The notes: a model not told the origin generated them from the sequence alone. 64,000 nucleotides of DNA from Gammaproteobacteria bacterium (GCA_965220895.1 OZ244850.1:1897506-1961505), one strand, 5' to 3'. Positions 3,852-23,025 are shown, numbered from the stretch's first letter. Numbers and translations: made by a program.

Positions 3852-3855
3852 ATTA

Positions 3856-4182: not shown

Positions 4183-4346
4183 AATCCTTTACTAACATTT
4201 ATGCTATCATTGAAATCTGGAAAAATCCACCTTGAGAGCACCTTGGAATCAATCATTTCACCGCCGGCTCCTGATGCTAAGCGGCAAGCTCAGCAGGTAG
4301 CCGATGAATGAAGATAATCGATTTTTGCATCAGGTGCAGGTGGTCG

Positions 4347-4532: not shown

Positions 4533-4619
4533 TTTTTTTTGACCTGTCATCACAGCGAGTGGGTGACTATCCTGCAGTAGGCGGATTGTCCAATTGATTC
4601 CAGCTTTCCTTTTGTTGCG

Positions 4620-6656: not shown

Positions 6657-6866
6657 TTTGTTATAGGTTATCGTTTCCATTCGATTCCGGCTCTACCTGG
6701 ACGCCTCACCTTCTGGTGTAGCGTCCCCGCTGCCGTTGGGGTCTGAAAATTGGCGGTTATCAAGTCTCCAGGCTGTCCGCTGGCAGGAACAAGGACAGCA
6801 TGGGCGTCTGATCATTGAGGCTGGATTACAGGAGATCGGTAAACTAGAAAATCTGGAGGAAGAACA

Positions 6867-7352
6867 ATGCGAAAAATTTTGACGGCAATCAGCCTTGGTA
6901 CTTGCCTCATGTTTGCTGGAGCGGCTTTGGCCGGGAATACACTGTCCGCAGAAGAGGCTACCTCGAAACACATGGTGGCCGAAGCCAGGCTGGCAGCCCA
7001 CTTCATCGATGCTGCCATCAGGGCGGGAATGAGCGCGGAGGCCATCAATTCCGTACTGGCCGATGTGGCACAGCATTCGGTGATTACTGAATTCTGGATC
7101 AGTGACGAGCACGGCCAGATCGCATTCACCAACATTCCCGGCACATCCTTCAGTTTTCCGACCGACCCGAACAGTGGCACGCAGGCGGCTCCCTTTGCCG
7201 CACTTTTGCACGGCAGTGAATCCGTGGTTGTCCAGGCCCTGGAAAAACGTGAGCTCGATGGCGCACCGTTCAAGTATGTCGGCGTGGCAGGTGTGGACAA
7301 GGCGCGAATCGTGCAGGTCGGGATTTCTGCTGCTGAACTGCACGGACACTGA
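6867..7352 (+). CDS. secreted hypothetical protein (signal peptide MRKILTAISLGTCLMFAGAALA)
   Basis: RBS ggagg 8 nt upstream; 161 aa; no family recognised. Confidence 0.55.
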   Translation: MRKILTAISLGTCLMFAGAALAGNTLSAEEATSKHMVAEARLAAHFIDAAIRAGMSAEAINSVLADVAQHSVITEFWISDEHGQIAFTNIPGTSFSFPTDPNSGTQAAPFAALLHGSESVVVQALEKRELDGAPFKYVGVAGVDKARIVQVGISAAELHGH

Positions 7353-7479
7353 ATGCGTTGGGTGCGCCTGGGAGCCAGGCCAATGGCTATCCCAGGCATT
7401 CCCTGAACGATAGCCGTACATCGCCATCATCCTGGACGGGCCGGTCTGGTGGCATCGTCTTAGCCAGGAGGCAGGGGGC

Positions 7480-7827
7480 TCAGAGGGGCTTGCTTTTGTC
7501 GGCCTCGTTTTCGGCCTGGAGGTTCACCGACCGGATCGCCTTGATGATTTCCTCGTGCTTGCTGTCCACATACTTTTTCTGTGTGCGCACGGACTTGTTG
7601 TAGGACATCACGATCAGCGGTGCAAACAGGGCACAGAGTATCCAGATGATGATCGGAACGAAGATGGTCCAGAGGGTGGCCACGGCGAGGATGATCGCAA
7701 GCAGCCCACCGATCAGGTTCGTGTAGGTGAACCCCAGTGGTCCAAGCAAGGTGGCCAGCAAAAATGCGATTAACGGCGATCTTTGTTGCTGCATCACCAT
7801 CCCGAATAGTTGAGCATGTCCAATCAT
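7480..7827 (-). CDS. small integral membrane protein (two hydrophobic helices), hypothetical
   Basis: Internal start MIGHAQLFGMVMQQQRSPLIAFLLATLLGPLGF...LLAIILAVATLWTIFVPIIIWILCALFAPLIV. The track ORF 7480..8073 likely overextends, and an alternative start at 7878 is possible. Confidence 0.4.
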   Translation of the reverse strand: MIGHAQLFGMVMQQQRSPLIAFLLATLLGPLGFTYTNLIGGLLAIILAVATLWTIFVPIIIWILCALFAPLIVMSYNKSVRTQKKYVDSKHEEIIKAIRSVNLQAENEADKSKPL

Positions 7828-8023
7828 AGCATTATTTGAACTGAACTCTGGAAGCCGCTCCGCTGTCTGATAGAGCATGAAGTACCCGGGATCCGGTGCA
7901 CAGGCTTTACACCGTGAAACCTGCCTGCTTGCAATCGACTGGCATCCGCTGTAGAAGCAATGGTTGCGTGAACGGTATCCCTCGTACCCCGTTGACCGGA
8001 AACCCTGAAAGGATCTGTTGACC

Positions 8024-8980
8024 ATGTTGCTGAAAACCACCCGGGCTTGCGATATCCGCGAATCCCAGGTCACCGATGAATCGCTTTACATCGAGCGGCG
8101 AAAGTTCATGCAGGGTACCGCCGCCCTGGCAGGGGCATCCCTGCTCCCGGCATCCTCCCTGTGGCCACAACCCGCACATGCTGCCATTAGCATCGGGGCT
8201 GTCGAAAAAAGCGTATTCTCGACCGCCGAGGAACTCAACTCGTTCGAGGATATTACGAGCTACAACAACTTCTACGAGCTCGGTCTGAAAAAAGGCGATC
8301 CGAAGCGAAACGCGGACCGCCTCATTACCGAACCGTGGAGCATCCGGGTGGAAGGCGAATGCGACAAGCCGGGCGACTATGACCTGGAAGACTTCATTCC
8401 TGCCCCACGGCTTGAGGAACGGATCTATCGCCTGCGCTGTGTGGAGGCCTGGTCGATGGTCATCCCCTGGGTAGGCGTTGAACTGGGACCCGTGCTGAAG
8501 CGTTTCGAGCCCACGTCCAAGGCCAAGTACGTACAGTTCTTCACCCTGTACGATCCGAAGAACCTGCCGGGCCAAAGGCGTTCGGTGCTGGACTGGCCGT
8601 ACCGCGAGGGCCTGAGAATGGATGAGGCCATGCATCCCCTGACCATACTGGCCGTGGGGCTGTACGGGAAAGTATTGCCGAACCAGAACGGTGCGCCGCT
8701 GCGCCTGGTCGTGCCATGGAAATACGGTTTCAAGAGTATCAAGTCGATCGTTCGCATACGCTTTTCCCAGTCCGAGCCTGCGACCAGCTGGAATCAGTCA
8801 GCGCCCCGTGAGTACGGCTTTTACTCGAACGTCAACCCGGCGGTGAACCACCCGCGCTGGAGCCAGAAAAGGGAGCGCAGGATCGGGGAGATCCTGAAGC
8901 GAAAGACCCTGCCGTTCAACGGCTATGCGGAGCAGGTGGCCGACCTGTATGCAGGCATGGACCTCAAAAAGCATTTCTGA
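8024..8980 (+). CDS. msrP: protein-methionine-sulfoxide reductase catalytic subunit MsrP (YedY), molybdopterin oxidoreductase with Tat signal
   Basis: Tat motif [17 protein letters not shown]. Conserved YedY core (ITSYNNFYE...[17 protein letters not shown]...[19 protein letters not shown]). Confidence 0.9.
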
Positions 8981-8993
8981 GCAGGGCCTTCAC

Positions 8994-9581
8994 ATGCGCC
9001 TTGGCAAGCCCCTGGTCTTTATTGCTTGCCTGGTCCCGCTGGCCTGCTACGGCTACTGGTTCTTTACAGATTCACTGGGGGCGAACCCCATCGAGGCCAT
9101 CACCCGAAGGGCCGGTGACTGGGCACTGCGGTTTTTACTGATCACTTTGGCCATCTCGCCGCTGAGAAAACTGACGGGCTGGCACGCGCTTGTGCGCTAC
9201 AGAAGGATGCTCGGCCTGTTCACCTTCTTTTACGTGTGCGTGCACCTGTTGCTGTATGTCACCCTGGACAAGTTTTTTGATCTCGCCGAGATCATCGAGG
9301 ATGTCATCGACCGACCCTTTATCACCGTGGGATTCACCGCCTTTGTGCTGCTGCTGCCGCTGGCAGCGACTTCGACCGACAGGATGGTCGAGGTGCTGCA
9401 GCACCGATGGACGCAGCTGCACCGCCTGGTCTACGTGGTGGCCATGCTGGCCGTTCTGCATTTCTGGTGGATGGTCAAGATCGACACCAGAGAGCCTGCC
9501 ATCTATGCGGCCATTCTCGCCGTCCTTCTCGGCTTCAGGCTGACGTTCTACCTGAAGAGGAAATTGCGGCCCGCAGCCTAG
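8994..9581 (+). CDS. msrQ: MsrQ (YedZ) heme-binding membrane subunit
   Basis: Start MRLGKPLVFIACLVPLA overlaps the msrP end. Multi-helix membrane protein with conserved His residues; canonical msrPQ pairing. Confidence 0.85.
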   Translation: MRLGKPLVFIACLVPLACYGYWFFTDSLGANPIEAITRRAGDWALRFLLITLAISPLRKLTGWHALVRYRRMLGLFTFFYVCVHLLLYVTLDKFFDLAEIIEDVIDRPFITVGFTAFVLLLPLAATSTDRMVEVLQHRWTQLHRLVYVVAMLAVLHFWWMVKIDTREPAIYAAILAVLLGFRLTFYLKRKLRPAA

Positions 9582-10054
9582 AGGTGCACGGACACCAGGT
9601 ACCGGGAATAGCTTTCGCGCATGGATGTGCGTTCGTCCACGGAGGTTTTCAGGATGTTCTCGAGCACCACCTCGAACTCGCGCTGGATGATCTTGAAAAA
9701 GATCTCGGTGAGCGGGCGTTTTCCCGTCGGCAGGGCAATGACCTTTTGCTGGAATCGCAATGGAAAGATGGTATCCCCGCGAAACAGGATCTTGACGGCA
9801 AATACCCAGCGCCAGTCCCAGGAATATATGGTCAGTGCAGCGTTTCCTGCGTAGATTTCAAAGGACTCGCCGTCCTTCATGACGCCTTCGCTGAACACGA
9901 CCGCCTGATAGGCGCTGGTGTTGTTGGAGCTGATGAGGTTGGCCCCGACGATGTCAGCCTTCTCCGAGTAAGGGCGGAGCCGTTCATACAGGGCAGGGTA
10001 GAATAGCTGCAGGAAGGCCAGCAGCATCGGGTAGTGGTCATGCGTGGCAACCAT
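9578..10054 (-). CDS. hypothetical protein (~158 aa)
   Basis: Internal start MVATHDHYPMLLAF.... The track ORF 9578..10213 runs into the antisense of the tRNA (MARPERFELPTTWFE is reverse-translated tRNA) and is trimmed accordingly. Confidence 0.5.
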   Translation of the reverse strand: MVATHDHYPMLLAFLQLFYPALYERLRPYSEKADIVGANLISSNNTSAYQAVVFSEGVMKDGESFEIYAGNAALTIYSWDWRWVFAVKILFRGDTIFPLRFQQKVIALPTGKRPLTEIFFKIIQREFEVVLENILKTSVDERTSMRESYSRYLVSVHL

Positions 10055-10108
10055 CGTTGAATAGTGTTCTAATTCGAATCCTCGTTCAATCCCCAATCGA
10101 TTGATCAT

Positions 10109-10185
10109 GCGCCCGTAGCTCAGCTGGATAGAGTACCTGGCTTCGAACCAGGTGGTCGGGAGTTCGAATCTCTCCGGGCGCGCCA
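10109..10185 (+). tRNA. tRNA-Arg (anticodon TCG), intact, 77 nt with encoded CCA
   Basis: Manual fold: acceptor GCGCCCG/CGGGCGC, D-arm GCTC-AGCTGGATA-GAGT, anticodon stem CCTGG/CCAGG with loop CTTCGAA, T-arm GGGAG-TTCGAAT-CTCTC, discriminator G. Confidence 0.85.
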
Positions 10186-10198
10186 TTTTGATTTCGGT

Positions 10199-11491
10199 CC
10201 GTACCGGGGACATGGTATACGTTTTATACCGGAGACATGGTTAACACTTTTTCGGTATAAACGGGTTCTCTGCGGGTTCGACCCGTCCGGCTTCTTCGTC
10301 GAAGAAGCCTAAATCATATTGCATGAAGCTGACAAGCCAGATGCGGTCTTCGACCTCCCGTATGCCCACGACCTGGCCGGCGAAGACGGTGCTGAGGTTG
10401 ATCTTTCGTCGTCCGATACAGATGCGCCCGCACTGGGTGACCTTGAGGGTGCGGTCGTGGAAGGGGTATTGCGGGGGTTGCGGCGGGGCATAGGGGCGTG
10501 TGGAGGGTGTATAGACATCTGCGGGATACAGGCCGCCGAGGGCCTGGTGCGGTCGTTCATGGTTGTATACCCGGATAAAGTCGTCGAAGCGGCTTTGCTG
10601 TTGCAGGGAGTTGAAGGAAGCGGGTCGGGTGGCTTCTTTCTTGAGGGTCAGGTGCATGCGTTCATGGCGCCCGTTCTGCTGGGGCTGTCCGGGCTGGATG
10701 CGTTCGATGCGGATGCCCAGGCGCAGCCACCAGACCGACAGGGAACTGAGGCCGAACAGGGCATTGGGCGAGGCGAAGGGGACGCCGTGATCGGTGCGGA
10801 TGGCCTGGGGCAGCCCATAGGCGTTGAAGGCCTGCTCGAAGACCGTGCGTGCGAAGGGGGATTTTGTCGAGTCCAGGGCCTCACAGGCAAGCAGGTAGCG
10901 GGAGTGATAGTCGGTGAGAGTAAGGGGATAGCAGTAGGCCTGGTTGCCGAGGCGGAACTGGCCCTTGTAGTCGGCACACCACAGGGCGTTGGGGGCTTGT
11001 GCATCGCTTAAAGCGGTGCCTTGGGCACGCCGGCGCCGGCGTTTGCGCCGTTTCACCAGGCCGTGACGGTCCAGCACCGCGTGGATCGTGCTCTTGGCCG
11101 GAGGATGGACCAGGGCATAGGCCCGCATCAGCTTCTCGCGGATCTTCGGCGCCCCCCAGCTCGGATGGTCACGCTTGATGCGCAGGATCGTTCGCTCCAC
11201 CGGGTACGGCAGGCGGTTGGCATGACGATAGGGCCTGCGGCTGCGATCGTCCAGCCCCTGCAGACCGCAGTCGCGATAGCGATTGAAGATCTTGTATCCG
11301 GTCACCCGGGAGATGCCGAACTCCCGGCACACCACCGCCATCTTCTCGCCCTCCAGCAACCGGGCTATAAATCGTATACGTTCATCCATCGGCTTACACT
11401 CTCTCCAAGGCATTCCAAGGTCTCCCTCAAATGCTCTATTGTGTAAACCATGTCTCCGGTATTTGCTGTAAGCTATGTCTCGGGTACTACA
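10199..11491 (-). mobile_element. IS481-family insertion sequence (~1.29 kb) inserted 8 nt downstream of tRNA-Arg, apparently flanked by a 6-bp TTCGGT duplication (10193..10198 and 11492..11497)
   Basis: Outer imperfect IRs: GTACCGGGGACATGGTATAC at 10201 and GTAAGCTATGTCTCGGGTAC at 11468 on the opposite strand. A better-matched inner IR pair, CCGGAGACATGGTT(A/T)ACAC, sits at 10229..10247 and 11441..11459. Single DDE transposase ORF inside. Confidence 0.75.
10241..11389 (-). CDS. IS481-family DDE transposase (integrase catalytic core)
   Basis: N-terminus MDERIRFIARLLEGEKMAVVCREFGISRVTGYKIFNRYRDCGLQGL, an rve-type core (...WCADYKG...TDHGVPF...) and C-terminal ...YNHERPHQALGG.... The track ORF start at 11503 overextends past the IR. 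Confidence 0.85.
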   Translation of the reverse strand: MDERIRFIARLLEGEKMAVVCREFGISRVTGYKIFNRYRDCGLQGLDDRSRRPYRHANRLPYPVERTILRIKRDHPSWGAPKIREKLMRAYALVHPPAKSTIHAVLDRHGLVKRRKRRRRRAQGTALSDAQAPNALWCADYKGQFRLGNQAYCYPLTLTDYHSRYLLACEALDSTKSPFARTVFEQAFNAYGLPQAIRTDHGVPFASPNALFGLSSLSVWWLRLGIRIERIQPGQPQQNGRHERMHLTLKKEATRPASFNSLQQQSRFDDFIRVYNHERPHQALGGLYPADVYTPSTRPYAPPQPPQYPFHDRTLKVTQCGRICIGRRKINLSTVFAGQVVGIREVEDRIWLVSFMQYDLGFFDEEAGRVEPAENPFIPKKC

Positions 11492-11741
11492 TTCGGTTGT
11501 CATCTTTTGCAGGGCAGCAGAATACGCTTGTCTTGTATGAAGTCTGGAACCCCCACTTCAGGGCTGCATGTCGCAGCCCTTGTTATTGTTTAGACCATAT
11601 CTTTAGAAGTTACTGATCCCAAGGGGCGCATTTGCCTTTGAATTAATATTCATATTAATAATAATTACTATTAACACTATGATTCGTTTTCATAAAAATG
11701 TAATATGCGCACCAGAATGTGACAGTTTCTTGGAGATACCG

Positions 11742-12983
11742 ATGATTTTATATGTGTCAAAGTTGAGATTTTGGCTCGGCCTGTTGGTGATGGCCTTGGC
11801 CCTGCCTGGCCATGCCGAAATGATTATGGTGGACAAAGCCGAATACGAGAGCCTGAAAAAGGCGGTTGAATTCTTGATGTCCGAACAGAAAAAGGCCATG
11901 GATGCGGCAGCCCGTGCTGAAGAAAAGGCGGATGAAGCTACAGAGATCGCCGTGGCGACTGCCGAAGTTGTTGAAGAAGGCCCGATGGCCGTGTTTGAAG
12001 GGATCTCGCTGGGTGGCTACGGCGAAGTGCACTACAACAACTATGATGCAAAAGACAGTTCGAGGGACGAGGATGATGCCGATCTCCACCGTTTCGTCAT
12101 CTTTTTGAACAAGGATTTCAGCGACAATCTGCGCATGGTATCCGAGTTCGAGATCGAGCATGGTGGGGTAGAGCCGGATGGTGATCCACTGGGCGGTGAG
12201 GTCGAGATGGAGCAGGCGTACCTCGAGTACGATATGAGCGATCACACCCAGGTGCGTGCCGGTGTATTCCTGGTACCGGCCGGTATCCTCAATGAAACCC
12301 ATGAGCCGCCGACATTCTATGGTGTCGAGCGAAACGTTGTGGAAAATATCCTTATCCCGTCTACCTGGTGGGAAATCGGTGCCGGCATGACCCATCGTTG
12401 GGACAACGGATTCAGTGCAGATGTGGCGTTTCACAGCGGACTGGAGATTCCCGATAGTGGCCGTATCCGAAGCGGGCGGCAAAAAGCTTCCAATGTCGAA
12501 GCGGAAGATCTGGCCACCACGGTGCGCCTGCGCTATACGGGTATGCCGGGGCTGGAGCTGGCTGGCTCTGTACAGTTCCAGAAAGATGCCAACCAGGAAG
12601 GTGGTGACATGATCGAGGATGCGCAGCTTTACACTGCCCATGCGGTCCTCAGCAAAGGTCCGTTCGGGCTGACGGCGCTGTATGCAAAGTGGGAACTCGA
12701 TGGTGATATTGAGGATGATCCCAGCGGTGCAGATGACCAGGATGGCTGGTACATTACGCCGAGTTTCAAGCCGGTCGACTGGCTCGGTCTGTATGCGAGT
12801 TACCAAGAGGTGGAAGGCGCCCGTTCGCAAGACCAGTTCGAGCAGTGGGAATTGGGTTTCAACTGGTGGTTGCACCCCAACGCTGTAGTCAAGGCCAACT
12901 ACAAGGATCGCGAGCATGACAACAGTGACGACAGAGGAAGGGATTTCGACGGCTTTGATCTGGGCGTCGGCTGGATGTTCTGA
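11742..12983 (+). CDS. outer-membrane porin-like beta-barrel protein with N-terminal coiled-coil segment
   Basis: Signal peptide MILYVSKLRFWLGLLVMALALPGHA, alternating beta-strand pattern and C-terminal ...GFDLGVGWMF. The 424-aa antisense ORF 11757..13031 is rejected. Confidence 0.7.
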   Translation: MILYVSKLRFWLGLLVMALALPGHAEMIMVDKAEYESLKKAVEFLMSEQKKAMDAAARAEEKADEATEIAVATAEVVEEGPMAVFEGISLGGYGEVHYNNYDAKDSSRDEDDADLHRFVIFLNKDFSDNLRMVSEFEIEHGGVEPDGDPLGGEVEMEQAYLEYDMSDHTQVRAGVFLVPAGILNETHEPPTFYGVERNVVENILIPSTWWEIGAGMTHRWDNGFSADVAFHSGLEIPDSGRIRSGRQKASNVEAEDLATTVRLRYTGMPGLELAGSVQFQKDANQEGGDMIEDAQLYTAHAVLSKGPFGLTALYAKWELDGDIEDDPSGADDQDGWYITPSFKPVDWLGLYASYQEVEGARSQDQFEQWELGFNWWLHPNAVVKANYKDREHDNSDDRGRDFDGFDLGVGWMF

Positions 12984-13061
12984 TCGCAGGCGATTCCTAT
13001 CAAGTGAGCAGGGCGACAGTGCCGGGAGCATCCCTTAATTTTCATGGACTAAGGCATCAGC

Positions 13062-13574
13062 TTGGAAAGATTTCTCCTCGTCGCCCTACTCATAGGGTTG
13101 TCTGGTACGCTGCAGGCCAAGGGGGTGTACCAGACTCCTGAAAAGTTCCTGTCACTTACGTTCAGTGAGGTTCCTGAGGCCCAGCGCATTCTCCTGACCG
13201 GCGACCTGTCCAAGCGCGTCAAGACCATTCTCGCGCATCGCTACAAGAAAATTCGGGTTCCTTACTGGCAAACAGGGTGTCGCAGCGCCTGGATTCTGGA
13301 AGAAATCGGCAAGGAGCGTTTCATTACCACAGGATTCGTGGTCAACTCCGGAGGCCTCGAAAAGGTCAAGGTCCTGATTTTCCGGGAAAGCCGGGGCTGG
13401 GAGGTGAAACATGACTACTTTGGCGAACAGTTCATCGATGCTAGGCTATCCGACAACCGCCTCACCAAAAGGATCGATAACATTTCCGGAGCGACACTGT
13501 CGGTTCGGGCCGTGACCAAACTTTCCAAAATGGCCTTGATGCTTCACGCCCACGTGACCGAGGGCACCTGCTGA
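13062..13574 (+). CDS. periplasmic FMN-binding domain protein
   Basis: Signal peptide plus FMN_bind signature (...ISGATLSVRAVT...). Confidence 0.7.
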   Translation: MERFLLVALLIGLSGTLQAKGVYQTPEKFLSLTFSEVPEAQRILLTGDLSKRVKTILAHRYKKIRVPYWQTGCRSAWILEEIGKERFITTGFVVNSGGLEKVKVLIFRESRGWEVKHDYFGEQFIDARLSDNRLTKRIDNISGATLSVRAVTKLSKMALMLHAHVTEGTC

Positions 13575-13588
13575 GCTAGCCCGCATCC

Positions 13589-14305
13589 ATGCAGAGTGAC
13601 CTGTTTGTATGGCACCGCAGTATCGGGCTGGTGGCTGCGCTGTTTATCTTTTTCCTGGTGGTGACCGGCATCGTGATCCAGCACAGCGATGGCCTGAATC
13701 TGCCGAGCAAGTACCTGTCGAATACCTGGCTGCTTCGGTATTACGGCATCAAACCGAACCCCATCACCAGCTTCAACGTCGGCGAGCAGGTGATCTCGCA
13801 TGCCGGCGAGACCCTTTACCTGTCTGGAAAGCCGATACCCGTCAAGGCCGGGGAGATGCATGGCGCGGTCACTCTCCACGATGTCATTGTCATTGCCACC
13901 TCCGACACGGTTCTTGTCTGTGATTCCACCGGTCAGGTGATCGATGAAATCACGGTACAGGATGGTTTGTATGAGTTTCCGCTGGGGATTGCCTTGACTG
14001 CACATGACACAGTGGTGATTCGCGGCACGAATGCTCATTGGGAAGCCGGCAACGGCTTTACAGTTTGGCAGGAAGTTCGCCGGGACGATCCAGCATGGGT
14101 GACCCCGTCTGTGACACCCCCCGATCTCAAAGACTTGATCGAAGCCCAGGACATGAGTTCACAAATCAGCTGGGAGCGTTTCCTGCTGGACCTGCACAGC
14201 GGGCGGGTTTTCGGCAAGTACGGGGTGTACGTAATTGATGCGGCAGGTATCTTGATACTGGTGCTTTCGATTACGGGAATCGTTCTATGGGTCACCCGGC
14301 GCTGA
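13589..14305 (+). CDS. PepSY-associated TM helix domain protein
   Basis: N-terminal WHRSIGLVAALFIFFLVVTGIVIQH and C-terminal LHSGRVFGKYGVYVIDAAGILILVLSITGIVLW, typical of the PepSY_TM family. Starts 14 nt after the FMN-binding gene. Confidence 0.75.
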   Translation: MQSDLFVWHRSIGLVAALFIFFLVVTGIVIQHSDGLNLPSKYLSNTWLLRYYGIKPNPITSFNVGEQVISHAGETLYLSGKPIPVKAGEMHGAVTLHDVIVIATSDTVLVCDSTGQVIDEITVQDGLYEFPLGIALTAHDTVVIRGTNAHWEAGNGFTVWQEVRRDDPAWVTPSVTPPDLKDLIEAQDMSSQISWERFLLDLHSGRVFGKYGVYVIDAAGILILVLSITGIVLWVTRR

Positions 14306-14365
14306 GCTGACCGATTTGATAGTGGCAGGGCAGCAGTCCCGGGATTTCAGCCGGCACGATTGCGT

Positions 14366-15331
14366 TCAGGGCCCGGCCTCGAAGCGCTCCGAATAGTGGA
14401 GCTTTCCCTCGCGGTCGATGATGACCGCCTCTGCTGCATCCAGGCCATTGATCAGCATCAGGCCCTTTTCGACACCCAGTACAAACACGCTGGTGGAAAG
14501 CGCATCGGTCATGATCGCATCAGGGCCAAGGACCGAGACGCTGGTCACCTCCCGGGCCGAGGCACCGGTGAGTGGATCGAGAATGTGATGGTACAGCGTG
14601 CCGTCTTTTGAAAAGGATCGCTCATAGTCCCCGGAAGTGGACAGGGCCTGGTCCTGGAGGGACAAGGTCATGGCAATGTACCCCGGTTCTCGAGGGTCGC
14701 GGATTCCGATCCTCCATGGACGGTCCAAACGGTTGCCCAGCATTCGCATGTCCCCGCCTGCAGTGACCTGGGCATGCCGGATCCCAAGCTCCGTCAGGTC
14801 CTGAACGGCCCGGTCCACGGCGTGCCCCTTGGCAATTCCGCCGAGGTCGATTTTCATGCCGGGTTTCAAAAAGGAGACGGTCTGCATTTCTGGATCCAGA
14901 ACAATGTTTCTGTAATCGATGAGCGCCTTGGCCTGGCGGATTTTGTCGTCGTCGGGTTTGACCTGCTTTTGATAGTTGTACAAGTGTCCGACGCTTGCAT
15001 AGGTGATGTCGAAAGCGCCTTTCGTCAATACGGACACATCCACTGATTTTCGGATCACTTCAAACAGTTCAGGACTGACGGAGACGGGTTTCTCGTGTGC
15101 AAATTGGTTGATTTCTGACAACTGGCTTTCTTCGATATAGGGGCTCATCAGGCGGTTCACCCGCTCCATGGTCTGCATCGCCTGGTCAATTCCCTGTCGG
15201 CGTATTCGAGCCTCCGGATGCCAAACCTCGACGCGGACAGTGGTTCCCATGGTGGTCGTTTCTTCGACCTCCCATTCCCCGAGTACCAGGCCGGTTGCAC
15301 AGGACAGGCATATGAGAGTCAGCCACTTCAT
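14366..15331 (-). CDS. apbE: FAD:protein FMN transferase (ApbE family), lipoprotein-type signal
   Basis: 321 aa; ApbE-family motifs (...GGIAKGHAVDRA..., ...ALSTSGDYERSF..., ...HHILDP.TG...). Confidence 0.85.
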   Translation of the reverse strand: MKWLTLICLSCATGLVLGEWEVEETTTMGTTVRVEVWHPEARIRRQGIDQAMQTMERVNRLMSPYIEESQLSEINQFAHEKPVSVSPELFEVIRKSVDVSVLTKGAFDITYASVGHLYNYQKQVKPDDDKIRQAKALIDYRNIVLDPEMQTVSFLKPGMKIDLGGIAKGHAVDRAVQDLTELGIRHAQVTAGGDMRMLGNRLDRPWRIGIRDPREPGYIAMTLSLQDQALSTSGDYERSFSKDGTLYHHILDPLTGASAREVTSVSVLGPDAIMTDALSTSVFVLGVEKGLMLINGLDAAEAVIIDREGKLHYSERFEAGP

Positions 15332-15501
15332 CCGATTACGAAATCCCTTGAAAAAATGATGAAAGGCCCCATCTTATAATTGAGTGCTGCGGGTTGCCGG
15401 GCCTTGAAAATCTGGCAGGTGTGCAGCATTCCATGTATTGATGGATTTTGAATGCATGCACCATTTTACAAACTGGACATGTTTACAGGGAGGGTAGCGA
15501 A

Positions 15502-16857
15502 ATGGAAATCAAGAAAGTCATCATACTACTGGTATTTTTGCTAATCCCGGCCTTGTCCCAGGCCACCAATGGCTATTTCTCGCATGGCTCAGGACTCAAG
15601 AACCGTGCCCTGGCAGGGGCCGGTGTCGCCTTTCCGCAAGATGCGATGGCGGGTGCCACCAACCCGGCCGGCATGGCCTTTGTCGGTAATCGCTACGATA
15701 TAGGCGCGGTGCTGTTCAAGCCCGATCGCGGGTACTCACCCAGCGCCAGCCTGGCCAATGGCAGCGGTGGTGCATTCACCATGGGAGCAGGATCCGAGAC
15801 GAGCCGCAACCGCGGTTTCATCATCCCGAGTTTCGGGCTCAACTACATGCTGAGTGAACAGGATGCCGTGGGATTTTCCGTGTACGGCAACGGCGGCATG
15901 AACACCTCCTACAAATCGGGCAGTGCCTCATTTGATCCGTTCGGGATGCGGGGTCAAGGCGTTTCCTTTCCTGGTGCACTGGGCGCAGGGACTGCGGGTG
16001 TGGATCTGATGCAGGTGTTCTTCAATCTTTCGTACGCGCGTCAATTCTCGGACCGATTCTCGGTCGGGGTCAGCCCGTTGCTGACGATGCAGACGTTTCG
16101 AAGTAACGGCCTGGATGCATTTGCGCCCTTTACGAAAACCTTCGTGTCAAGCCAGGGGACCCGGATGCCGAATCACCTGACCCAAAATGGTACCGACCGT
16201 GCCTACGGCTGGGGCCTGCAGGTGGGCATGCTGGCCAGGGATATCGCCGATGCAGCGGACCTGGGCATCTCGTATCGCACGAAGATCGACATGGAACGAT
16301 GGGAGGACTACGCGGACCTGTTTGCAGAAGACGGCACCTTTGACATTCCCTCCACCCTGTGGGCGGGCGTGGCCATCGAGGTCGCTGAAAACATGACGCT
16401 TGTGGCGGATTATCAGCGTATCTGGTACGGGGACAGCGATGCGATCAGCAATGGGGTGCAGAACCTGTTTGACTGCCCGGCTCTGGGCGGACAGGATCTT
16501 GAAAGCTGTCTCGGCGGTGATCGCGGGGCCGGGTTCGGATGGGATGATATGGATATCTTCAAGGTCGGGCTGCAGTGGCAGGCCAGACCCCGCATCATCG
16601 GGCGGATCGGTTACAGTCATGCCAGCCAGCCCATCGGCCGCGACCAGGTACTGTTCAACCTCCTGGCCCCGGCCGTGGTTGAAGACCACATCACCCTGGG
16701 TGCAACAGTCACTACCCGGGTCGGTGATATCACGCTTGAGGCCATGCATACCTTTGGCAATTCCGTGAAGGGGCCCAATCCTTTTGACCCCACGCAGACG
16801 GTACGGCTCAGCATGGAGCAGTTTGAAATCGGAGCCGGCTGGTCCGTGAAATTCTGA
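15502..16857 (+). CDS. fadL: FadL/OmpP1/TodX-family outer-membrane transporter for hydrophobic compounds
   Basis: Start MEIKKVIILLVFLLIPALSQA followed by NGYFSHGSGLKNRALAGAGVAFPQDAMAGATNPAGMAF; C-terminal ...GWSVKF. Confidence 0.85.
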   Translation: MEIKKVIILLVFLLIPALSQATNGYFSHGSGLKNRALAGAGVAFPQDAMAGATNPAGMAFVGNRYDIGAVLFKPDRGYSPSASLANGSGGAFTMGAGSETSRNRGFIIPSFGLNYMLSEQDAVGFSVYGNGGMNTSYKSGSASFDPFGMRGQGVSFPGALGAGTAGVDLMQVFFNLSYARQFSDRFSVGVSPLLTMQTFRSNGLDAFAPFTKTFVSSQGTRMPNHLTQNGTDRAYGWGLQVGMLARDIADAADLGISYRTKIDMERWEDYADLFAEDGTFDIPSTLWAGVAIEVAENMTLVADYQRIWYGDSDAISNGVQNLFDCPALGGQDLESCLGGDRGAGFGWDDMDIFKVGLQWQARPRIIGRIGYSHASQPIGRDQVLFNLLAPAVVEDHITLGATVTTRVGDITLEAMHTFGNSVKGPNPFDPTQTVRLSMEQFEIGAGWSVKF

Positions 16858-17115
16858 TATGGGCTTTCGCTTGTGCGATAGCCAAGCCTGACAACACCGT
16901 ATCCTGAATCCGGACCCATGATTGAATCGGGTGTGTGCTGCGCAGTCCCGTGCTCTGAAGGGCGCTTTGCACGTATAATGCACTGTAAAGAAGATGACTT
17001 TTGGGAATCACTTCAGTGCACCTGTTCTTTTCGGAGAGGTTCGATGAAGGACGTCAAGCGACAGGTGTCTGCAAGTTTTTTTGGGGGCAGACGAAATTTG
17101 GGAGGCACACAGTGA

Positions 17116-17490
17116 TCCGTCCCGCATCACAACAGGGGCGATCCTGATGGTTCAGGCACAGGGCAGGCATTACCCAACGCGAGTCAGATCCAGGCAAACC
17201 TTGCCGGCACTTCATCTACTGCGGATGCTGAGCTGGACGACACCCTGTTTGGGTACCAGCTGTTGTTCGGGGTCGATTACGCACTGACCGACGCCATGGC
17301 GCTTGGAGTCAAGGGACGCTGGGTGGACTTCGAATCCCTCAAGGACAGTGGTATGGGATCCGTTGCGTGGCCATCCGCCGTATCTGCGTACCCCGGCACA
17401 GGCCGGACAGGGGGGAGGTCGCGACCCGACAATACTACGCTACTGCTCGAGGCTGGCCTGGGGCGGATGGGATGCCGTCAGGACCTGTGA
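17116..17490 (+). pseudogene. remnant of an outer-membrane beta-barrel protein gene (OmpW/OmpA-like C-terminal strands), no start, and truncated
   Basis: The stop-free frame from 17116 reads ...NLAGTSSTADAELDDTLFGYQLLFGVDYALTDAMALGVKGRWVDFESLKD..., typical of terminal OMP beta-strands. No signal peptide or N-terminal domain. Its 3' end is overlapped by the transglutaminase gene on the other strand. Confidence 0.35.
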
Positions 17491-18405
17491 CAGGTTCGCA
17501 GGCTCGGCATGGGGTCTGGTTTCGGATACGGGTTCATCCGCGTTCGTTACGGTGACACACACTTCAAGCCTAGAGTGCCCGCCACTGAAATAGGTCCCTT
17601 GCGTCGGGGCAGCATCGGCGTAGTCGCGGCCGATGGCTATGCGGATGTGGCGGTGATCTGCCGGCGTGTTGTTGGTGGGGTCTATGCCTACCCAGCCGGG
17701 GCCTGGAATCCAGAACTCCGCCCAGGCGTGGCTCGCACCGGACGGCGTCTGTTCATTACCGGTCCCCTCCAGGTGCAGGTAGCCGGACACGTACCGGCTT
17801 GGAATTCCCCAGGAGCGCCCGATGGCAATCAGTACATGCGTGTAGTCCTGGCAGACGCCATGGCGGGTTTCCAGGATGTGTTCGATGGTGGAATCCACGT
17901 GGGTGCTCCCGGGCGTGTAACTGAAGGCCCCGTACAGTTTCGATGCGGCTTGCAGCAGGGATGAGAGCGGAGTACCGCCTGGCTCGATTCCCTGCGCTTC
18001 GATAAATGCCTCGAGAGGCTTGCAAGTGTAGACAAAGCGGCTCGAATTCAGAAACGCCCAGTAGCGCACGCGATCCGTGCTCTCTGCCAAGGCCTCCCAG
18101 CCCCACGTGCCGGAGTCGTCGGGCAACTGCGGGTCCGGGGCGGGGGCGACACGGGCCCGGGCGTGCAACACGGTCTGCCGGTGCATGCGGTGGATGTTGA
18201 TCAGGTGGCAGCGGTTGCCGAAGGCATCTGTACAGGGGACAGGTATGGTCAGCGGATCGACATGCAGGCCAAACTCCAGCACCTGCTGGCCCGCATCCTC
18301 CCTCGGATGCAGCCTCAAGAGCATGACACTACCGTGGGCCACAGTTTCGTAATGGAAATGGCAACGGTGCTCGATCCGGTACTGGCAGGGTTCGGGTGAT
18401 TTCAT
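17440..18405 (-). CDS. transglutaminase-like cysteine-protease-fold protein (third member of the CP-ATP-grasp/alpha-E/transglutaminase cluster)
   Basis: Internal start MKSPEPCQYRIEHRC.... TGase core (...THGVCQDYTHVLIAIGRSWGIPSRYVSGY...SHAWAEFWIPGPGWVGIDPTN...). The 4-nt overlap with the upstream alpha-E gene indicates coupling. The track ORF start at 18774 overextends. Confidence 0.8.
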   Translation of the reverse strand: MKSPEPCQYRIEHRCHFHYETVAHGSVMLLRLHPREDAGQQVLEFGLHVDPLTIPVPCTDAFGNRCHLINIHRMHRQTVLHARARVAPAPDPQLPDDSGTWGWEALAESTDRVRYWAFLNSSRFVYTCKPLEAFIEAQGIEPGGTPLSSLLQAASKLYGAFSYTPGSTHVDSTIEHILETRHGVCQDYTHVLIAIGRSWGIPSRYVSGYLHLEGTGNEQTPSGASHAWAEFWIPGPGWVGIDPTNNTPADHRHIRIAIGRDYADAAPTQGTYFSGGHSRLEVCVTVTNADEPVSETRPHAEPANLSQVLTASHPPQASLEQ

Positions 18406-19379
18406 GCGCCGGGTGTATCCTCGATCTCGTACTTGAAATAGGTGGTCTCGATATTCTCGTGCACCTTGCGGCTGGTACCGCGCAGTTCTTGCAACACCGT
18501 TCGGGTCGCATCGGTATCGTTGAGATTGTGCCTCGGCCAGTCGAAGTCGATGTACGCGGCCATGTGTCCTGCCAGGCGGCGTGCTTCCCGGGCCGGGCGC
18601 TTTTCCGAGACGCGTTCCAGGGCCACGACGATGCGTGCCAGCGCGTACCGGATCGAGCGGGAAAGGCGCAGGTCGCTGACCAGGAAGTTGATCACATTGA
18701 CCGGTTGGTACTCCAGCGAATAGCGGCGGCTGAACGTGCTCCGGGCTTCGCAGACCTGCAGCAGCGAGAGCCATTCGGATTCGATGTGGGCCTCGTCCAG
18801 GGGAAACACGGTGATCTGGGCCTCGATCAGTGCAGCCAGAAGCTGCACCCGCTCGACAAAGCGCCCGAGCTGAATGAAGTGCCAGCCATCATCGCGGTAC
18901 ACCGTGCTGTCGACGATCCCCGAGAATGTCCGGATCGTGTCCTCGGCATGCAGGTAGAAGTCGCCCGGGCGATCATCCCAGATGTTGGCGATGCCGACCT
19001 TGGACAGCTTCAGGTAGGCCACATTCAGGCAGTACCACATGTCCTTGCTGATCACGTTCCTGACCTGGCGGGCATTTTCGCGCGCCGTGGCGATGCAGTT
19101 GAGGATGGAGTCCGGGTTGCTGAACTCGAAGGTCAGGTCGTCGGCCAGCGTGTAGGAGTCGGCCAGCATGAAATTCTCATCATCGAGGTTCGACTCCAGG
19201 CTGCCGCCCACCGGTTCGCAGTCGAGACTGGCGTACAGGCGTCGCCAGGTCTGGTCGATTTCCTCCACCGGACGGTCTTCCAGGGTCTGCAGTTGATCGG
19301 CCAGCAGGCGACAGCCGTGCTGTGCCCTTTCGAGGTAACGGCTGATCCAGTACAGCCCCTGTGCATTGCGTGACAGCAT
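18402..19379 (-). CDS. alpha-E domain protein (DUF403)
   Basis: 325 aa, MLSRNAQGLYWISRYLERA..., characteristic of alpha-E proteins encoded between a CP ATP-grasp and a transglutaminase gene. The overlapping plus-strand ORF 18396..19373 is rejected. Confidence 0.75.
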   Translation of the reverse strand: MLSRNAQGLYWISRYLERAQHGCRLLADQLQTLEDRPVEEIDQTWRRLYASLDCEPVGGSLESNLDDENFMLADSYTLADDLTFEFSNPDSILNCIATARENARQVRNVISKDMWYCLNVAYLKLSKVGIANIWDDRPGDFYLHAEDTIRTFSGIVDSTVYRDDGWHFIQLGRFVERVQLLAALIEAQITVFPLDEAHIESEWLSLLQVCEARSTFSRRYSLEYQPVNVINFLVSDLRLSRSIRYALARIVVALERVSEKRPAREARRLAGHMAAYIDFDWPRHNLNDTDATRTVLQELRGTSRKVHENIETTYFKYEIEDTPGA

Positions 19380-19383
19380 GGCG

Positions 19384-20847
19384 TTACGGGGGCAATACCC
19401 AGAGGTCCTTGCCGCCTCCTCCCTGGCTCGAGTTGACGATCAAGGAGCCGGGGCGCAGCGCCACCCTGCAAAACGCACCCGGAACCAGCCGTGTTTCCTG
19501 GCCGCACAGTACGAACGGGCGAAGGTCCACGTGGCGGGGGGCGGCGCCTTCATCGGTCAGGCAGGGTGCACAGGAAAGGTTGAGGGCAGGCTGCGAGACA
19601 TAGTTGGCCGGGTTTTTGCGAATCTCGGCGGCGTAGGCCGCCCGCTCGTTTGCACTTGCCTGCGGCCCCACCAGCATGCCGTAGCCACCGGAGCCGCCGA
19701 CCACCTTGACAATCAGTTGCTCCAGGTTGTCGAGCGTATACTCCAGGCCTTCGGGCTCGCGGCAAAGATGGGTCTCCACGTTGGCCAGCAGGGGTTCTTC
19801 ATTGAGATAGTACCGGATAATGTCCGGGACATATGCATACAGGCTTTTGTCATCGGCCACCCCGGTCCCCGGGGCATTGGCAATGGCGACGTTTCCCATG
19901 CGATAGGCATAGAACAGGCCCGGCGTGCCAAGCCGGGAGTCCTGCCTGAAGGCCAGCGGGTCGATATAGTCATCGTCGATCCTGCGGTAGATGACGTCTA
20001 CACGCCGTAACCCTTCGGTCGTTCGCATGTAGACAAACCCGTTGTGGACCAGCAGGTCCTTGCCCTGTACCAGCTCCACCCCCATCTCGCGTGCCAGGAA
20101 CATGTGTTCGTAGTAGGCGGAGTTGTAGACGCCCGGTGTGAGGAGGACGATGCAGGGATCGGCGACCCCGGCGGGAGCAAACTCGGCCAGGGTTTTTCGC
20201 AGCAGCTTGCCGTACTGCTCGATGCCACAGACCCTGTGCCGTCGAAACAGGTTGCGCATGCTGGTCTTCAGGGCACGACGGTTGGCCAGCATGTACGAGA
20301 CCCCGGAAGGCACGCGCAGGTTGTCTTCCAGGACCATGAAACCGTCATGGGTGCGAACGAGATCGGTGCCGCAAAGAAAGACGTGGATGCCCAGGGGTAC
20401 CTGCACCCCGCGCATCTGGGTACGGTACTGCGGGCAGCCGTAGACGAGGTCCGCGGGCACGATGCCATCGCCAAGGACTTGTGCAGGCTCCTGCGCATAG
20501 ATGTCCGCAAGAAACAGGTTCAGTGCACGCAGTCTTTGGTGCAGTCCATGCTCGATCAGTTGCCACTCGCCGGCATCCAGCACCCTGGGAAGCAGGTCGA
20601 TCGGGATGATGCGTTCTTGCGCACTTTCGTCCCCGTATACGGAAAAGGTAATGCCCTCGTGCAGAAACGACTGTTCCGTTCTTTCCTGCAGGGCCGCGAT
20701 GTCGGCACCGGACATGGCGCCAAGATGCTCCCAGAGTGCCTTGCAATGTTCGCGCGGCACGCCAGGGGCTGAAAACATCTCGTCATAAAAGGCGGGATTG
20801 ACCTCATAGCCGGAAAAAAGTGAGGCGGATTTCACCGGGTTATACAC
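19384..20847 (-). CDS. circularly permuted type-2 ATP-grasp protein (DUF404/DUF407)
   Basis: 487 aa, conserved with the two downstream genes as a triad of unknown function. Confidence 0.8.
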   Translation of the reverse strand: MYNPVKSASLFSGYEVNPAFYDEMFSAPGVPREHCKALWEHLGAMSGADIAALQERTEQSFLHEGITFSVYGDESAQERIIPIDLLPRVLDAGEWQLIEHGLHQRLRALNLFLADIYAQEPAQVLGDGIVPADLVYGCPQYRTQMRGVQVPLGIHVFLCGTDLVRTHDGFMVLEDNLRVPSGVSYMLANRRALKTSMRNLFRRHRVCGIEQYGKLLRKTLAEFAPAGVADPCIVLLTPGVYNSAYYEHMFLAREMGVELVQGKDLLVHNGFVYMRTTEGLRRVDVIYRRIDDDYIDPLAFRQDSRLGTPGLFYAYRMGNVAIANAPGTGVADDKSLYAYVPDIIRYYLNEEPLLANVETHLCREPEGLEYTLDNLEQLIVKVVGGSGGYGMLVGPQASANERAAYAAEIRKNPANYVSQPALNLSCAPCLTDEGAAPRHVDLRPFVLCGQETRLVPGAFCRVALRPGSLIVNSSQGGGGKDLWVLPP

Positions 20848-21076
20848 CTGGGAGGTTTTTCTCTGTCAGGCTATTATAATTTATCGTGAAAACAGGGGTC
20901 GAAAAACATGCCCTTTTGCCCCGCACCCGAACCCACCTTGAAGCCCTGCCACAGCGGAATCAGTCATGATGCGGCCAAGCGGGTATACTTGCACCTGTAT
21001 GGGTATTCCGTAACGGCCTGGTAGATACACACATTACAGTTCATTTGGCCCGTCATACACAGCTGGATACAAATTG

Positions 21077-22324
21077 ATGCTCCAACCCCTCGAGCTTTTT
21101 ATAGGTTCACGCTACTTGCGTGCAAAAAGGCGAAATCACTTCATTTCATTCATCTCGCTGATTTCCGTGCTCGGGATCGCGCTCAGCATCATCGTGCTGA
21201 TCACCGTGCTGTCGGTCATGAACGGCTTCCAGCATGAGGTCAAGCACCGGATTCTGGGAATGACCTCGCATGCGACCGCCATGGAGATGACCGGGGTCTT
21301 GCGGGACTGGCAGGGGTTGCAGGACAAACTCAGGGACAATGACGAGATCAAGGGTACCGCGCCCTATGTCCAGGCGCAGGGCATGATCGTCAGCGGCAGG
21401 CGCCTGACCGGGGCCATGCTCAACGGGGTGGACCCTGCACTTGAAGGGAACGTCTCCCGGATTGGAGACCTGGTGCTCGACGGTGACCTCGGTGTCCTGC
21501 ATGCCGGTGAATACGGCATCTTGCTGGGCAAGGACCTGGCCGGCTATTTGCGCGTGGCAACGGGCGACAAGGTCTCCGTGCTGACTCCGGAGGCGAATGT
21601 CACCCCGGCAGGCATCGTGCCGCGGCTCAGGCGTTTTACCGTGGTGGGCATCTATTCCGTGGGGGTGCCGCAGTACGATCGCAACACGGCGGTCATGCAC
21701 ATCGAGGATGCCAGGCGCCTGTTTCGCCTGGGCGATGCCGTATCCGGACTGCGTCTCAGGTTCGAGGACCTGTTCAATGCGCCCCCGATCACCCAGGGGC
21801 TGCGTACCCAGCTGGGCGAGGACTACTGGGTCACCGACTGGACCCAGCATAACAGCCAGTTTTTCCGTGCCCTCAGGATCGAGAAGATCATGATGGCCAT
21901 CATCCTGTCCCTGCTGGTGCTGATCGCCGCATTCAATATCGTCTCTGCGCTGGTCATGGTGGTCACCGAGAAGCAAAGCGATATCGCCATCCTGCGCACC
22001 CTAGGCGTCACGCCGAAAGGAATCATGAGCATATTCGTCATCCAGGGAACGGTGATCGGCCTCGTCGGGACTGTCTTAGGGGCCATCTTCGGCCTCTTGC
22101 TAGCCGCCAACCTGGAAACCATTATCGGCAGGATCGAAGCCTATTTCGGGATGAGGTTTTTGTCCGACAACATTTACCCGATCAATGACCTGCCTTCGAA
22201 AATCGACACGGTAGACGTGGCCCTCGTGTGCACGCTGGCCTTCGTGCTCACCGTGCTGGCAACCCTGTACCCGGCATGGAAGGCTTCTCGCACCCAGCCC
22301 GCCGAGGCGTTGCGCTACGAGTAG
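21077..22324 (+). CDS. lolC: lipoprotein-releasing system permease LolC/LolE
   Basis: MLQPLELFIGSRYLRAKRRN...; FtsX-like permease with 4 TM helices and a periplasmic domain; followed by lolD. Confidence 0.85.
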   Translation: MLQPLELFIGSRYLRAKRRNHFISFISLISVLGIALSIIVLITVLSVMNGFQHEVKHRILGMTSHATAMEMTGVLRDWQGLQDKLRDNDEIKGTAPYVQAQGMIVSGRRLTGAMLNGVDPALEGNVSRIGDLVLDGDLGVLHAGEYGILLGKDLAGYLRVATGDKVSVLTPEANVTPAGIVPRLRRFTVVGIYSVGVPQYDRNTAVMHIEDARRLFRLGDAVSGLRLRFEDLFNAPPITQGLRTQLGEDYWVTDWTQHNSQFFRALRIEKIMMAIILSLLVLIAAFNIVSALVMVVTEKQSDIAILRTLGVTPKGIMSIFVIQGTVIGLVGTVLGAIFGLLLAANLETIIGRIEAYFGMRFLSDNIYPINDLPSKIDTVDVALVCTLAFVLTVLATLYPAWKASRTQPAEALRYE

Positions 22325-22329
22325 GCACC

Positions 22330-23025
22330 ATGGCTGAGGTTCTGCAATGCAATTCACTGGTGCGCACGTTCGCGAGCGGCCCGCTGCATGTACAGGTGCT
22401 CAAGGGGGTGGACCTCAGCGTGGAGGCGGGCAGCCGGCAGGCGATCATCGGGGTGTCCGGCAGCGGCAAGAGCACACTGATGCATCTGCTGGGAGGTCTG
22501 GATACCCCGGATTCCGGCACGGTACAGGTGTGCGGGCGGGACATGTCCAGCCTCTCGGATGCGGAGCGCGGGCAGTTGCGAAACCGTGCACTGGGCTTCA
22601 TTTACCAGTTCCATCATCTGTTGCCGGAGTTCACCGCCCTGGAGAACGTCGCCATCCCGTTGCTGTGGCGACGCTGGCCGGTCTCCAGGGCGCTTGGCCA
22701 GGCGCAGGAATTCCTTGCCAAGGTGGGCATGTCCGGGCACATGAAGCACAAACCGGCGGAGCTCTCCGGTGGAGAGAGGCAGCGCGTTGCGATTGCCCGT
22801 GCCCTGGTGACCGAACCGCAGGTGGTGCTTGCCGATGAACCGACGGGAAATCTCGACCAGAAAAATGTCGAACAGGTGCAGGCCCTGATGTTCGAGATGT
22901 GCAGGGAACTGGGCATGGCGCTGGTTGTGGTGACGCATGATCCGGGCGTAGCACAGTCCATGGACGTGACCTACCAACTGACCGACGGGCGGCTGTCCGT
23001 GGCCGAAGCCGTCCATCATTCTTGA
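22330..23025 (+). CDS. lolD: lipoprotein-releasing system ATP-binding protein LolD
   Basis: Start MAEVLQCNSLVRTF.... Walker A GVSGSGKST, ABC signature LSGGERQR, Walker B VVLADEPTGNLD. Confidence 0.9.
   Translation: MAEVLQCNSLVRTFASGPLHVQVLKGVDLSVEAGSRQAIIGVSGSGKSTLMHLLGGLDTPDSGTVQVCGRDMSSLSDAERGQLRNRALGFIYQFHHLLPEFTALENVAIPLLWRRWPVSRALGQAQEFLAKVGMSGHMKHKPAELSGGERQRVAIARALVTEPQVVLADEPTGNLDQKNVEQVQALMFEMCRELGMALVVVTHDPGVAQSMDVTYQLTDGRLSVAEAVHHS

Follow-up and report, generated by a model that had tools for sequence, protein, structure and literature searches.

The closest described relatives of the locus considered here are operons in which the genes for a circularly permuted (CP) ATP-grasp protein, an Alpha-E protein and a transglutaminase-like protein stand in series, and the association of these genes with Anbu, a proteasome-type protease, was described in 2008 (PMC3235984). 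In the passages quoted by later authors, Iyer et al. (2009) proposed for them a ‘specific peptide-synthesis system’ or a tagging role (PMC5666114, PMC6376114). The Anbu structure papers of 2017 called the role of the operon unconfirmed (PMC6376114, PMC5666114); the only activity reported was the release of orthophosphate from ATP by the Yersinia ATP-grasp protein (PMC6376114). A preprint of April 2026 still treats Rv2411c and Rv2567 of M. tuberculosis as uncharacterised ‘candidates’, neither of which makes gamma-aminobutyrate (GABA)-trehalose. Here we analyze such a triad in a stretch of 64,000 nucleotides (nt) from a Gammaproteobacteria bacterium (GCA_965220895.1 OZ244850.1:1897506-1961505), referred to below as the window. 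An earlier reading of this DNA, made from the sequence only, had regarded the biochemistry of the triad as unresolved, and nothing found contradicts this: no function is assigned to it in the 2017 papers, in the 2026 preprint, in PDB entries, or elsewhere in the literature and PDB searched to 2026, most subscription journals lying outside that search.

The three genes are located on the minus strand. The first, at 19384..20847 (-), encodes the CP ATP-grasp protein, a predicted ATP-dependent carboxylate-amine ligase with a longest open reading frame (ORF) of 487 amino acids (aa) from GTG 20847; the second, at 18402..19379 (-), encodes the all-helical Alpha-E protein of 325 aa, the constant partner of the ATP-grasp protein; the third, at 17440..18405 (-), encodes a transglutaminase-like cysteine enzyme of 321 aa, whose Bact_transglu_N domain is followed by a papain-like transglutaminase core and by a variable tail at the C-terminus. 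The TAA stop of the ATP-grasp gene is separated by 4 nt from the ATG of the Alpha-E gene, while the TGA of the latter overlaps the ATG of the transglutaminase gene by 4 nt (ATGA), as fits their earlier description as overlapping or coupled minus-strand genes. All three are single-copy in the window, which holds no large transglutaminase paralogue either. The sequence-only reading gave the three minus-strand ORFs correctly, except that the ATP-grasp start is likely GTG 20835 (483 aa) rather than GTG 20847, because the database protein P0001, the representative of 13 member sequences, which is 483 aa long and 96% identical to the window protein, begins at the residue equivalent to 20835, and because AGGTG lies 9 nt upstream of it. 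The best reading of the locus is a COG2308/COG2307/COG1305 triad that is functional and cytoplasmic.

The three family assignments of the earlier reading were all borne out by strong Pfam matches, while no NCBIfam model matched any of the three proteins. The ATP-grasp protein matched CP_ATPgrasp_2 over the full 374-position model (E 3.8e-152) and CP_ATPgrasp_1 (E 1e-141); among PDB entries it matched 3N6X (E 1.3e-162; E 6e-195 in the profile search), a structural-genomics entry that is its sole solved relative there. It belongs to a family with at least 8,000 candidates in the homologue search; identity between phyla is about 50%, and 135 of 487 positions are conserved in ≥95% of 81 sequences from many phyla. 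The AlphaFold2 model of this protein, built from a shallow alignment in which every row was ≥70% identical, had a predicted local distance difference test (pLDDT) score of 49.6.

The Alpha-E protein matched the Pfam Alpha-E model over positions 1-294 of 294 (E 9.9e-66), a family with 3,906 cluster representatives at 50% identity. Its conserved residues are R14, E17-R18, R24, R100-E101-N102, R104 and E176-R177, the Glu-Arg motifs E17-R18 and E176-R177 being ≥95% conserved among 78 sequences. The AlphaFold2 model (pLDDT 88) consists of 15 helices; its search against the PDB returned generic helical-bundle matches only, and no Alpha-E structure was found in the PDB. The transglutaminase-like protein matched Bact_transglu_N (E 8.2e-18) and Transglut_core (E 1.5e-22), both above the cut-offs, has relatives of its core in the PDB (6G49/6G4H, 3ISR), and retains the triad Cys185 (in GVCQD), His226 and Asp242, ≥95% conserved in 55 sequences. 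No signal peptide was evident in it by eye. Membership of the three proteins in a known anti-phage defence system was considered and rejected, as none of them matched a PADLOC model at E≤0.01.

The integrity of the operon was assessed against its closest relatives, namely L010, an uncultured Gammaproteobacteria metagenome-assembled genome (MAG) with 91% DNA identity to the window over 9.5 kb, and L001 and L002, with 87% and 84% identity, of which L002 is a complete chromosome of 1.87 Mb. Many of the next-closest ATP-grasp homologues come from MAGs labelled Candidatus Poriferihabitaceae, Alphaproteobacteria or Dehalococcoidia. In all four genomes the three genes run without internal stops or frameshifts, and the ratios of nonsynonymous to synonymous substitution (dN/dS) computed against the three relatives were 0.09-0.11 for the ATP-grasp gene, 0.09-0.10 for the Alpha-E gene and 0.19-0.26 for the transglutaminase-like gene. 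These values, the uninterrupted frames and the intact catalytic residues make it most implausible that the operon is a non-functional relic in a shrinking symbiont genome. Such decay could be read from the pseudogene of an outer-membrane protein (OMP) that adjoins the operon, and from the loss, relative to L010, L001 and L002, of 47 nt that lay after a TATAAT box and ahead of the ATP-grasp start (window ~20848-20872, relatives ~7940-7995), which removed the relatives’ ATG together with 12-16 N-terminal codons. The short N-terminus, however, is shared by P0001 with its 13 sequences, and the missing part precedes the region aligned by homologues from other phyla.

The reading that we favour, with a probability of roughly 0.45, is that the triad comprises an amide ligase driven by ATP and partnered by Alpha-E, together with an associated thiol enzyme, and acts on a substrate encoded elsewhere. 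The CP ATP-grasp protein would activate a carboxylate as an acyl-phosphate and join it to an amine, yielding an amide or isopeptide bond. Alpha-E, which has no known catalytic fold, would be its obligatory partner subunit, the conserved Arg and Glu clusters presumably binding or positioning the substrate. The transglutaminase-like Cys-His-Asp enzyme might form a thioester with the same type of bond, followed by hydrolysis or transfer, so that ligase and thiol enzyme would work as writer and as eraser or processor. The substrate, not encoded beside the operon, would probably be a conserved cellular component, and the module, judging from its homologues, may serve nitrogen economy; in the window organism it would do so from an apparently ordinary promoter and with no Anbu protease. 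We infer the chemistry, the partner role of Alpha-E, the class of substrate and the physiological role from family chemistry and from homologues.

Gene order was counted in the 80 best related loci, 77 of which were informative, i.e., had enough downstream sequence. The order ATP-grasp, Alpha-E, transglutaminase on the same strand was present in 56 of the 77 loci, distributed over many phyla, in accordance with the earlier description of a widespread operon. A further 20 loci had ATP-grasp and Alpha-E genes without a transglutaminase gene, and in a single one neither partner adjoined the ATP-grasp gene. Thus, ATP-grasp and Alpha-E genes are adjacent in 76 of the 77 loci and constitute the constant core. 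The hundreds to thousands of homologues of each of the three genes and the recurrence of the full order in 56 loci show that the arrangement is not due to chance. That the core pair acts as one unit is argued by Ralstonia solanacearum (locus L083, CP047139.1), in which ATP-grasp and Alpha-E are fused in frame in a coding sequence of 871 aa, followed by a small transglutaminase gene.

Several variants of the arrangement were observed. The fusion in L083 (region 2443-9422) is preceded by a 1144-aa ‘IMP dehydrogenase’, which gave a tblastn match to the transglutaminase core and whose start resembles Bact_transglu_N; this annotation is probably erroneous, as far as its sequence tells. The variants of Caballeronia and Burkholderia sp. 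YI23 contain an extra putative zinc metallopeptidase and a transglutaminase protein of ~1140 aa, whereas in Kozakia only 153 nt of the metallopeptidase gene are left, accompanied by two small transglutaminase genes. Tandem ATP-grasp/Alpha-E sets within ~8 kb were found in six loci (L048, L050, L054, L057, L068 (Planctomycetota/Phycisphaerae) and L075). The second ATP-grasp of these sets is only ~30% identical to the query, a divergence indicating paralogous modules of ancient duplication.

As to the nature of the substrate, we put the chances of a peptide or protein carboxylate at about even, and lean to it because peptidases recur beside homologues: Anbu itself, the putative zinc metallopeptidase of Caballeronia and a gamma-glutamyltranspeptidase in L015. 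A small nitrogen-rich metabolite is nearly as likely. The latter would suit a cycle of small-molecule conjugates resembling that of glutathionylspermidine synthetase/amidase, in which a peptide or amino-acid carboxylate is joined to a polyamine or another amine and the product is hydrolysed by the transglutaminase-like enzyme, buffering a nitrogen-rich pool. This alternative, which we consider rather unlikely as a whole, draws on the pairing of an ATP-grasp-type synthetase with a thiol amidase, as in E. coli Gss, on the extreme conservation of the ATP-grasp protein across phyla, which suits a universal small substrate, on the lack of a co-encoded peptide, and on the gamma-glutamyltranspeptidase and the Amt ammonium transporter in related clusters. 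It also draws on the name under which 3N6X was deposited, ‘putative glutathionylspermidine synthase’. Against it, the window protein showed no sequence-level match to such enzymes: at E≤0.01 Pfam gave only CP_ATPgrasp_1/2 and no GSP_synth, and the PDB profile search at E≤10 returned 3N6X alone and no solved GspS chain. Furthermore, the triad has no conserved transporter or tailoring gene at its side, peptidases and not metabolic enzymes recur as its partners, and Gss has no counterpart of Alpha-E. The gamma-glutamyltranspeptidase gene of L015 (Dehalococcoidia), at 12548-14188 (-), lies ~2 kb downstream of the ATP-grasp/Alpha-E pair; it is a single case, which may hint at gamma-glutamyl chemistry.

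The flanks of the related loci gave no candidate for a co-encoded substrate. No same-strand gene was conserved downstream of the triad in 80 loci, no ORF of ≥25 aa ending at the ATP-grasp start was conserved in 84 loci, and the recurrent flank families, obtained by unbiased clustering of the flank ORFs, included no small tag-like or peptide-like protein; nor was any precursor peptide, exporter, transporter or tailoring gene conserved in the flanks of the triad. Consequently, this branch of the family carries neither Anbu nor a candidate substrate peptide beside the triad, and the cognate substrate gene that the sequence-only reading had thought worth seeking in homologous loci did not emerge on either side (84 loci upstream, 80 downstream). 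These results bear heavily on the idea that the operon makes a ribosomal or non-ribosomal peptide natural product, the ATP-grasp protein being a macrocyclase or ligase as in microviridins. ATP-grasp ligases of other families do make peptide natural products. The ‘specific peptide-synthesis system’ of Iyer et al. (2009), in the wording quoted in PMC5666114, points the same way. However, apart from the missing precursor-peptide ORF, exporter and tailoring gene, the ~50% identity of ATP-grasp proteins across phyla is unlike that of fast-diverging natural-product enzymes, and the relative L002 keeps the operon on a 1.87-Mb chromosome; we therefore regard such a role as very improbable.

The same observations speak to a pupylation-like tagging for degradation, in which ATP-grasp and Alpha-E would mark a protein, the transglutaminase-like enzyme would prepare or remove the mark, and Anbu, encoded elsewhere, would degrade the product. 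This is the published proposal (PMC6376114, PMC5666114, PMC3235984); in the canonical operon Anbu follows this very set of three, and PP_2685 (Anbu) and PP_2688 (ATP-grasp) of P. putida are co-induced on nitrate. In the window, however, Anbu is not adjacent: in its place, 3′ of 17440, lie just the convergent remnant of an OMP gene and a gene resembling FadL. No proteasome domain was found in the ten neighbouring ORFs scanned, no search of the whole window with an Anbu sequence being made, and Anbu was not seen in four inspected plasmid or chromid regions. The 80 related loci have no conserved same-strand gene in the position that Anbu would occupy, and no small Pup-like gene stands beside the ligase. 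Moreover, Anbu showed no peptidase activity and formed no stable complex with the operon proteins (PMC6376114), and Valas and Bourne noted the ATP-grasp gene in genomes lacking Anbu (PMC3235984). We thus consider degradation tagging improbable, and tagging via Anbu unlikely in the lineage of the window unless Anbu is encoded elsewhere.

The link of the triad with nitrogen comes from distant homologues. In B. cenocepacia, I35_5080-83 are NtrC/sigma-54 dependent and decrease 6- to 9-fold in an ntrC mutant (PMC5491218); in P. putida, PP2685-2687 increase 7- to 11-fold under nitrogen limitation (PMC3325844), and the co-induction of PP_2685 and PP_2688 on nitrate amounts to log2 ~4 (PMC8050072). 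A Bradyrhizobium homologue has a predicted sigma-54 site and probably belongs to a nitrogen-limitation regulon, and in marine metagenomes the abundances of the triad domains co-vary with those of urea-metabolism domains. The flanks of the related loci agree with this published link. One recurrent set of genes was found in 9-14 loci (e.g., L024 10421-17298; L015 1223-7977; L003 145-2712), often beside ATP-grasp and Alpha-E without a transglutaminase gene, in Chloroflexota and in MAGs, one each of Pseudomonadales, Alphaproteobacteria, Vicinamibacteria and Phycisphaeraceae and two of Poriferihabitaceae. It comprises the ammonium transporter Amt, a Peripla_BP_6 protein, a HAMP histidine kinase, a response regulator-SpoIIE (PP2C) phosphatase, an RsbW-like HATPase_c_2 protein and a probable STAS protein, the last recognized by a look at the sequence only. 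The set couples a partner-switching signalling module to the ligase pair, and Amt occurs within 8 kb of ATP-grasp/Alpha-E in 9 of the 80 loci, from several phyla. Neither the genes of this set nor a gamma-glutamyltranspeptidase gene like that of L015 are present in the window.

The promoter region of the window operon was analyzed in the 226-nt divergent intergenic region 20848-21073. No match to the sigma-54 -24/-12 motif (TGGCAC-N5-TTGCW, ≤2 mismatches) was found there, and window-wide the motif stays below chance (32 found vs 42 expected); thus, the nitrogen control known from free-living Proteobacteria cannot be transferred to this organism from sequence alone. A candidate sigma-70-like promoter is located at 20873..20902 (-), with TCGACC-18 nt-TATAAT 26 nt upstream of the ORF and 10 of 12 consensus positions matched; with one site found vs a shuffle mean of 1.3 there is no excess of such sites, and the -10 region is partly kept in L010, L001 and L002. 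Besides, the intergenic space that separates the ATP-grasp gene from lolC contains a block, at ~20956-21041, with hardly any variation among four genomes whose overall identity is only 84-91%. Its conservation exceeds that of the coding DNA on either side, and the divergent promoters may share it as a regulatory element. An Rfam scan in and around the operon, including this block, gave only a sub-threshold chance match.

Some of these facts and several others weigh against the favoured reading of a ligase with its thiol enzyme in nitrogen economy. Not a single member of the family has a demonstrated product, substrate or complex, and in Yersinia the operon proteins were not pulled down together and Anbu lacked peptidase activity (PMC6376114). 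The absence of the transglutaminase gene from 20 of the 77 loci means that writer and eraser need not be paired. So high a conservation as that of the ATP-grasp protein would suit a small universal metabolite as well as a protein. The Amt link is concentrated in related MAGs, so that its counts are not phylogenetically independent, and the window itself has no sigma-54 promoter match, no adjacent Anbu and no nearby nitrogen gene, its neighbours being envelope genes; the nitrogen link is therefore borrowed from distant homologues.

These neighbours are as the sequence-only reading had placed them, i.e., the operon lies between FadL and lolCD, next to a decayed OMP gene. Upstream and divergent from the ATP-grasp gene are lolC/E at 21074-22324 (+) and a lolD-like gene at 22228-23025 (+), beyond which lie msbA and lpxK, kdsB also being among the local genes; on the other side, downstream and convergent, a FadL/Toluene_X-family outer-membrane protein (Pfam E 1.8e-13, above the cut-off) is encoded at 15448-16857 (+). 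Between the latter and the operon, at 17096..17425 (+), there is a remnant of a beta-barrel OMP gene, convergent with the transglutaminase gene and outside the operon. The remnant is a frameshifted C-terminal part, corresponding to residues ~198-300 in two frames, as detected by tblastn with the intact 324-aa protein encoded at the same spot in L001; in L010 the remnant is shorter and in L002 there is none. Such surroundings, with outer-membrane-protein genes on one flank, lolC-lolD-msbA-lpxK on the other and kdsB in the neighbourhood, could suggest a cell-envelope role, e.g., the modification of a lipoprotein or an envelope precursor. This role is largely refuted by the finding that lolC, FadL or a close msbA stands beside the triad only in the three closest genomes (the msbA match in L032, at 35%, is not close), and the envelope context is accordingly treated as incidental. 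In addition, no export signals were evident in the three proteins when the translations were read by eye, and the adjacent OMP gene is decaying or absent in relatives in which the triad is intact; we find an envelope role very doubtful.

Farther from the operon, the window region 10109-15477 contains a tRNA-Arg(TCG) gene (10109-10185) and, after it, a transposase gene of the IS481 family at 10241-11503 (-); next comes a block of ~5.3 kb that encodes a porin, a PepSY_TM protein, ApbE and an FMN_bind protein. This block is present in L010 and missing at the same position in L001, where the equivalent of 10188 abuts that of 15478, and has the appearance of an insertion that varies between strains and adjoins a tRNA gene. 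The ORF 9578-10213 (-), of 211 aa, matches no Pfam family and crosses the tRNA-Arg gene in antisense orientation. An ORF of L001 shares its N-terminus (ARPERFELPTTWFEA...), and the window ORF is probably a spurious frame created by the conserved tRNA sequence. Close by on the far side of the tRNA gene, at 8018-9581, there is an ordinary-looking MsrP/MsrQ-like pair, in which the gene for a protein with a molybdopterin oxidoreductase domain precedes that for a membrane protein resembling ferric reductases.

Few bacterial operons whose reaction is still to be found are as widespread as the triad. Solving it would probably bring to light a new amide-forming modification or metabolite with a link to nitrogen stress, and account for the Anbu particle, a puzzle of long standing. 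The window copy is an ordinary member of the family from an uncultured gammaproteobacterium and offers no clue to the substrate beyond those from better-studied homologues, although its triad, kept and selected without an adjacent Anbu or a sigma-54 promoter, indicates that the core does not need Anbu. A more speculative idea, to which we attach only a small chance, is that this lineage may run the triad as a constitutive housekeeping modification of a universal component tied to nitrogen status. The 1.87-Mb chromosome of the relative, the lack of an adjacent Anbu and of a sigma-54 match, and the strong purifying selection are its basis, and it fits the clusters of other phyla that contain Amt together with an RsbU/RsbW/RsbV-type partner-switching module. 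If true, it would mean a new ATP-dependent covalent modification of a core protein or metabolite of nitrogen metabolism, with Alpha-E as a new type of ligase subunit.

Among the known systems, two resemble the triad only in the way they would work. In E. coli Gss, the bond made by an ATP-dependent amide synthetase is also the target of its partner, a papain-like thiol amidase; Gss differs in being one polypeptide, in having no Alpha-E and in its CHAP amidase, and no sequence relation to it was detected. Pup/PafA/Dop combines ATP-dependent isopeptide ligation with a reversing enzyme and, in some genomes, a proteasome-type particle, whereas the triad has no Pup-like gene near it and the window locus no proteasome gene; the fold of PafA and Dop is glutamine-synthetase-like and not that of ATP-grasp. 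3N6X, presumably from Methylobacillus flagellatus, is a full-length homologue of the window ATP-grasp protein, its deposited name being a guess and not an assayed activity.

The Burkholderia/Caballeronia/Kozakia variant shares the core of ATP-grasp (52% identity) and Alpha-E with the window; in it (B. cenocepacia I35_5080-83) the large transglutaminase protein of ~1140 aa and a metallopeptidase replace or supplement the small transglutaminase, while the window has the small one only. The Anbu operons of Yersinia bercovieri, Pseudomonas aeruginosa and P. putida (PP_2685-2688) have the same three families in the same order and on the same strand, and differ by the fourth gene, Anbu, downstream, where the window has the convergent OMP remnant; the clusters of Pseudomonas and Burkholderia are also under nitrogen/NtrC control, in contrast to the window operon with its lack of a sigma-54 promoter motif. 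Rv2411c-Rv2409c of M. tuberculosis, which we take to be a triad without Anbu, belongs to a different phylum and stands in a different context. Such Anbu-less triads have the same three-gene arrangement as the window and dominate among the loci fetched (56 of 77).

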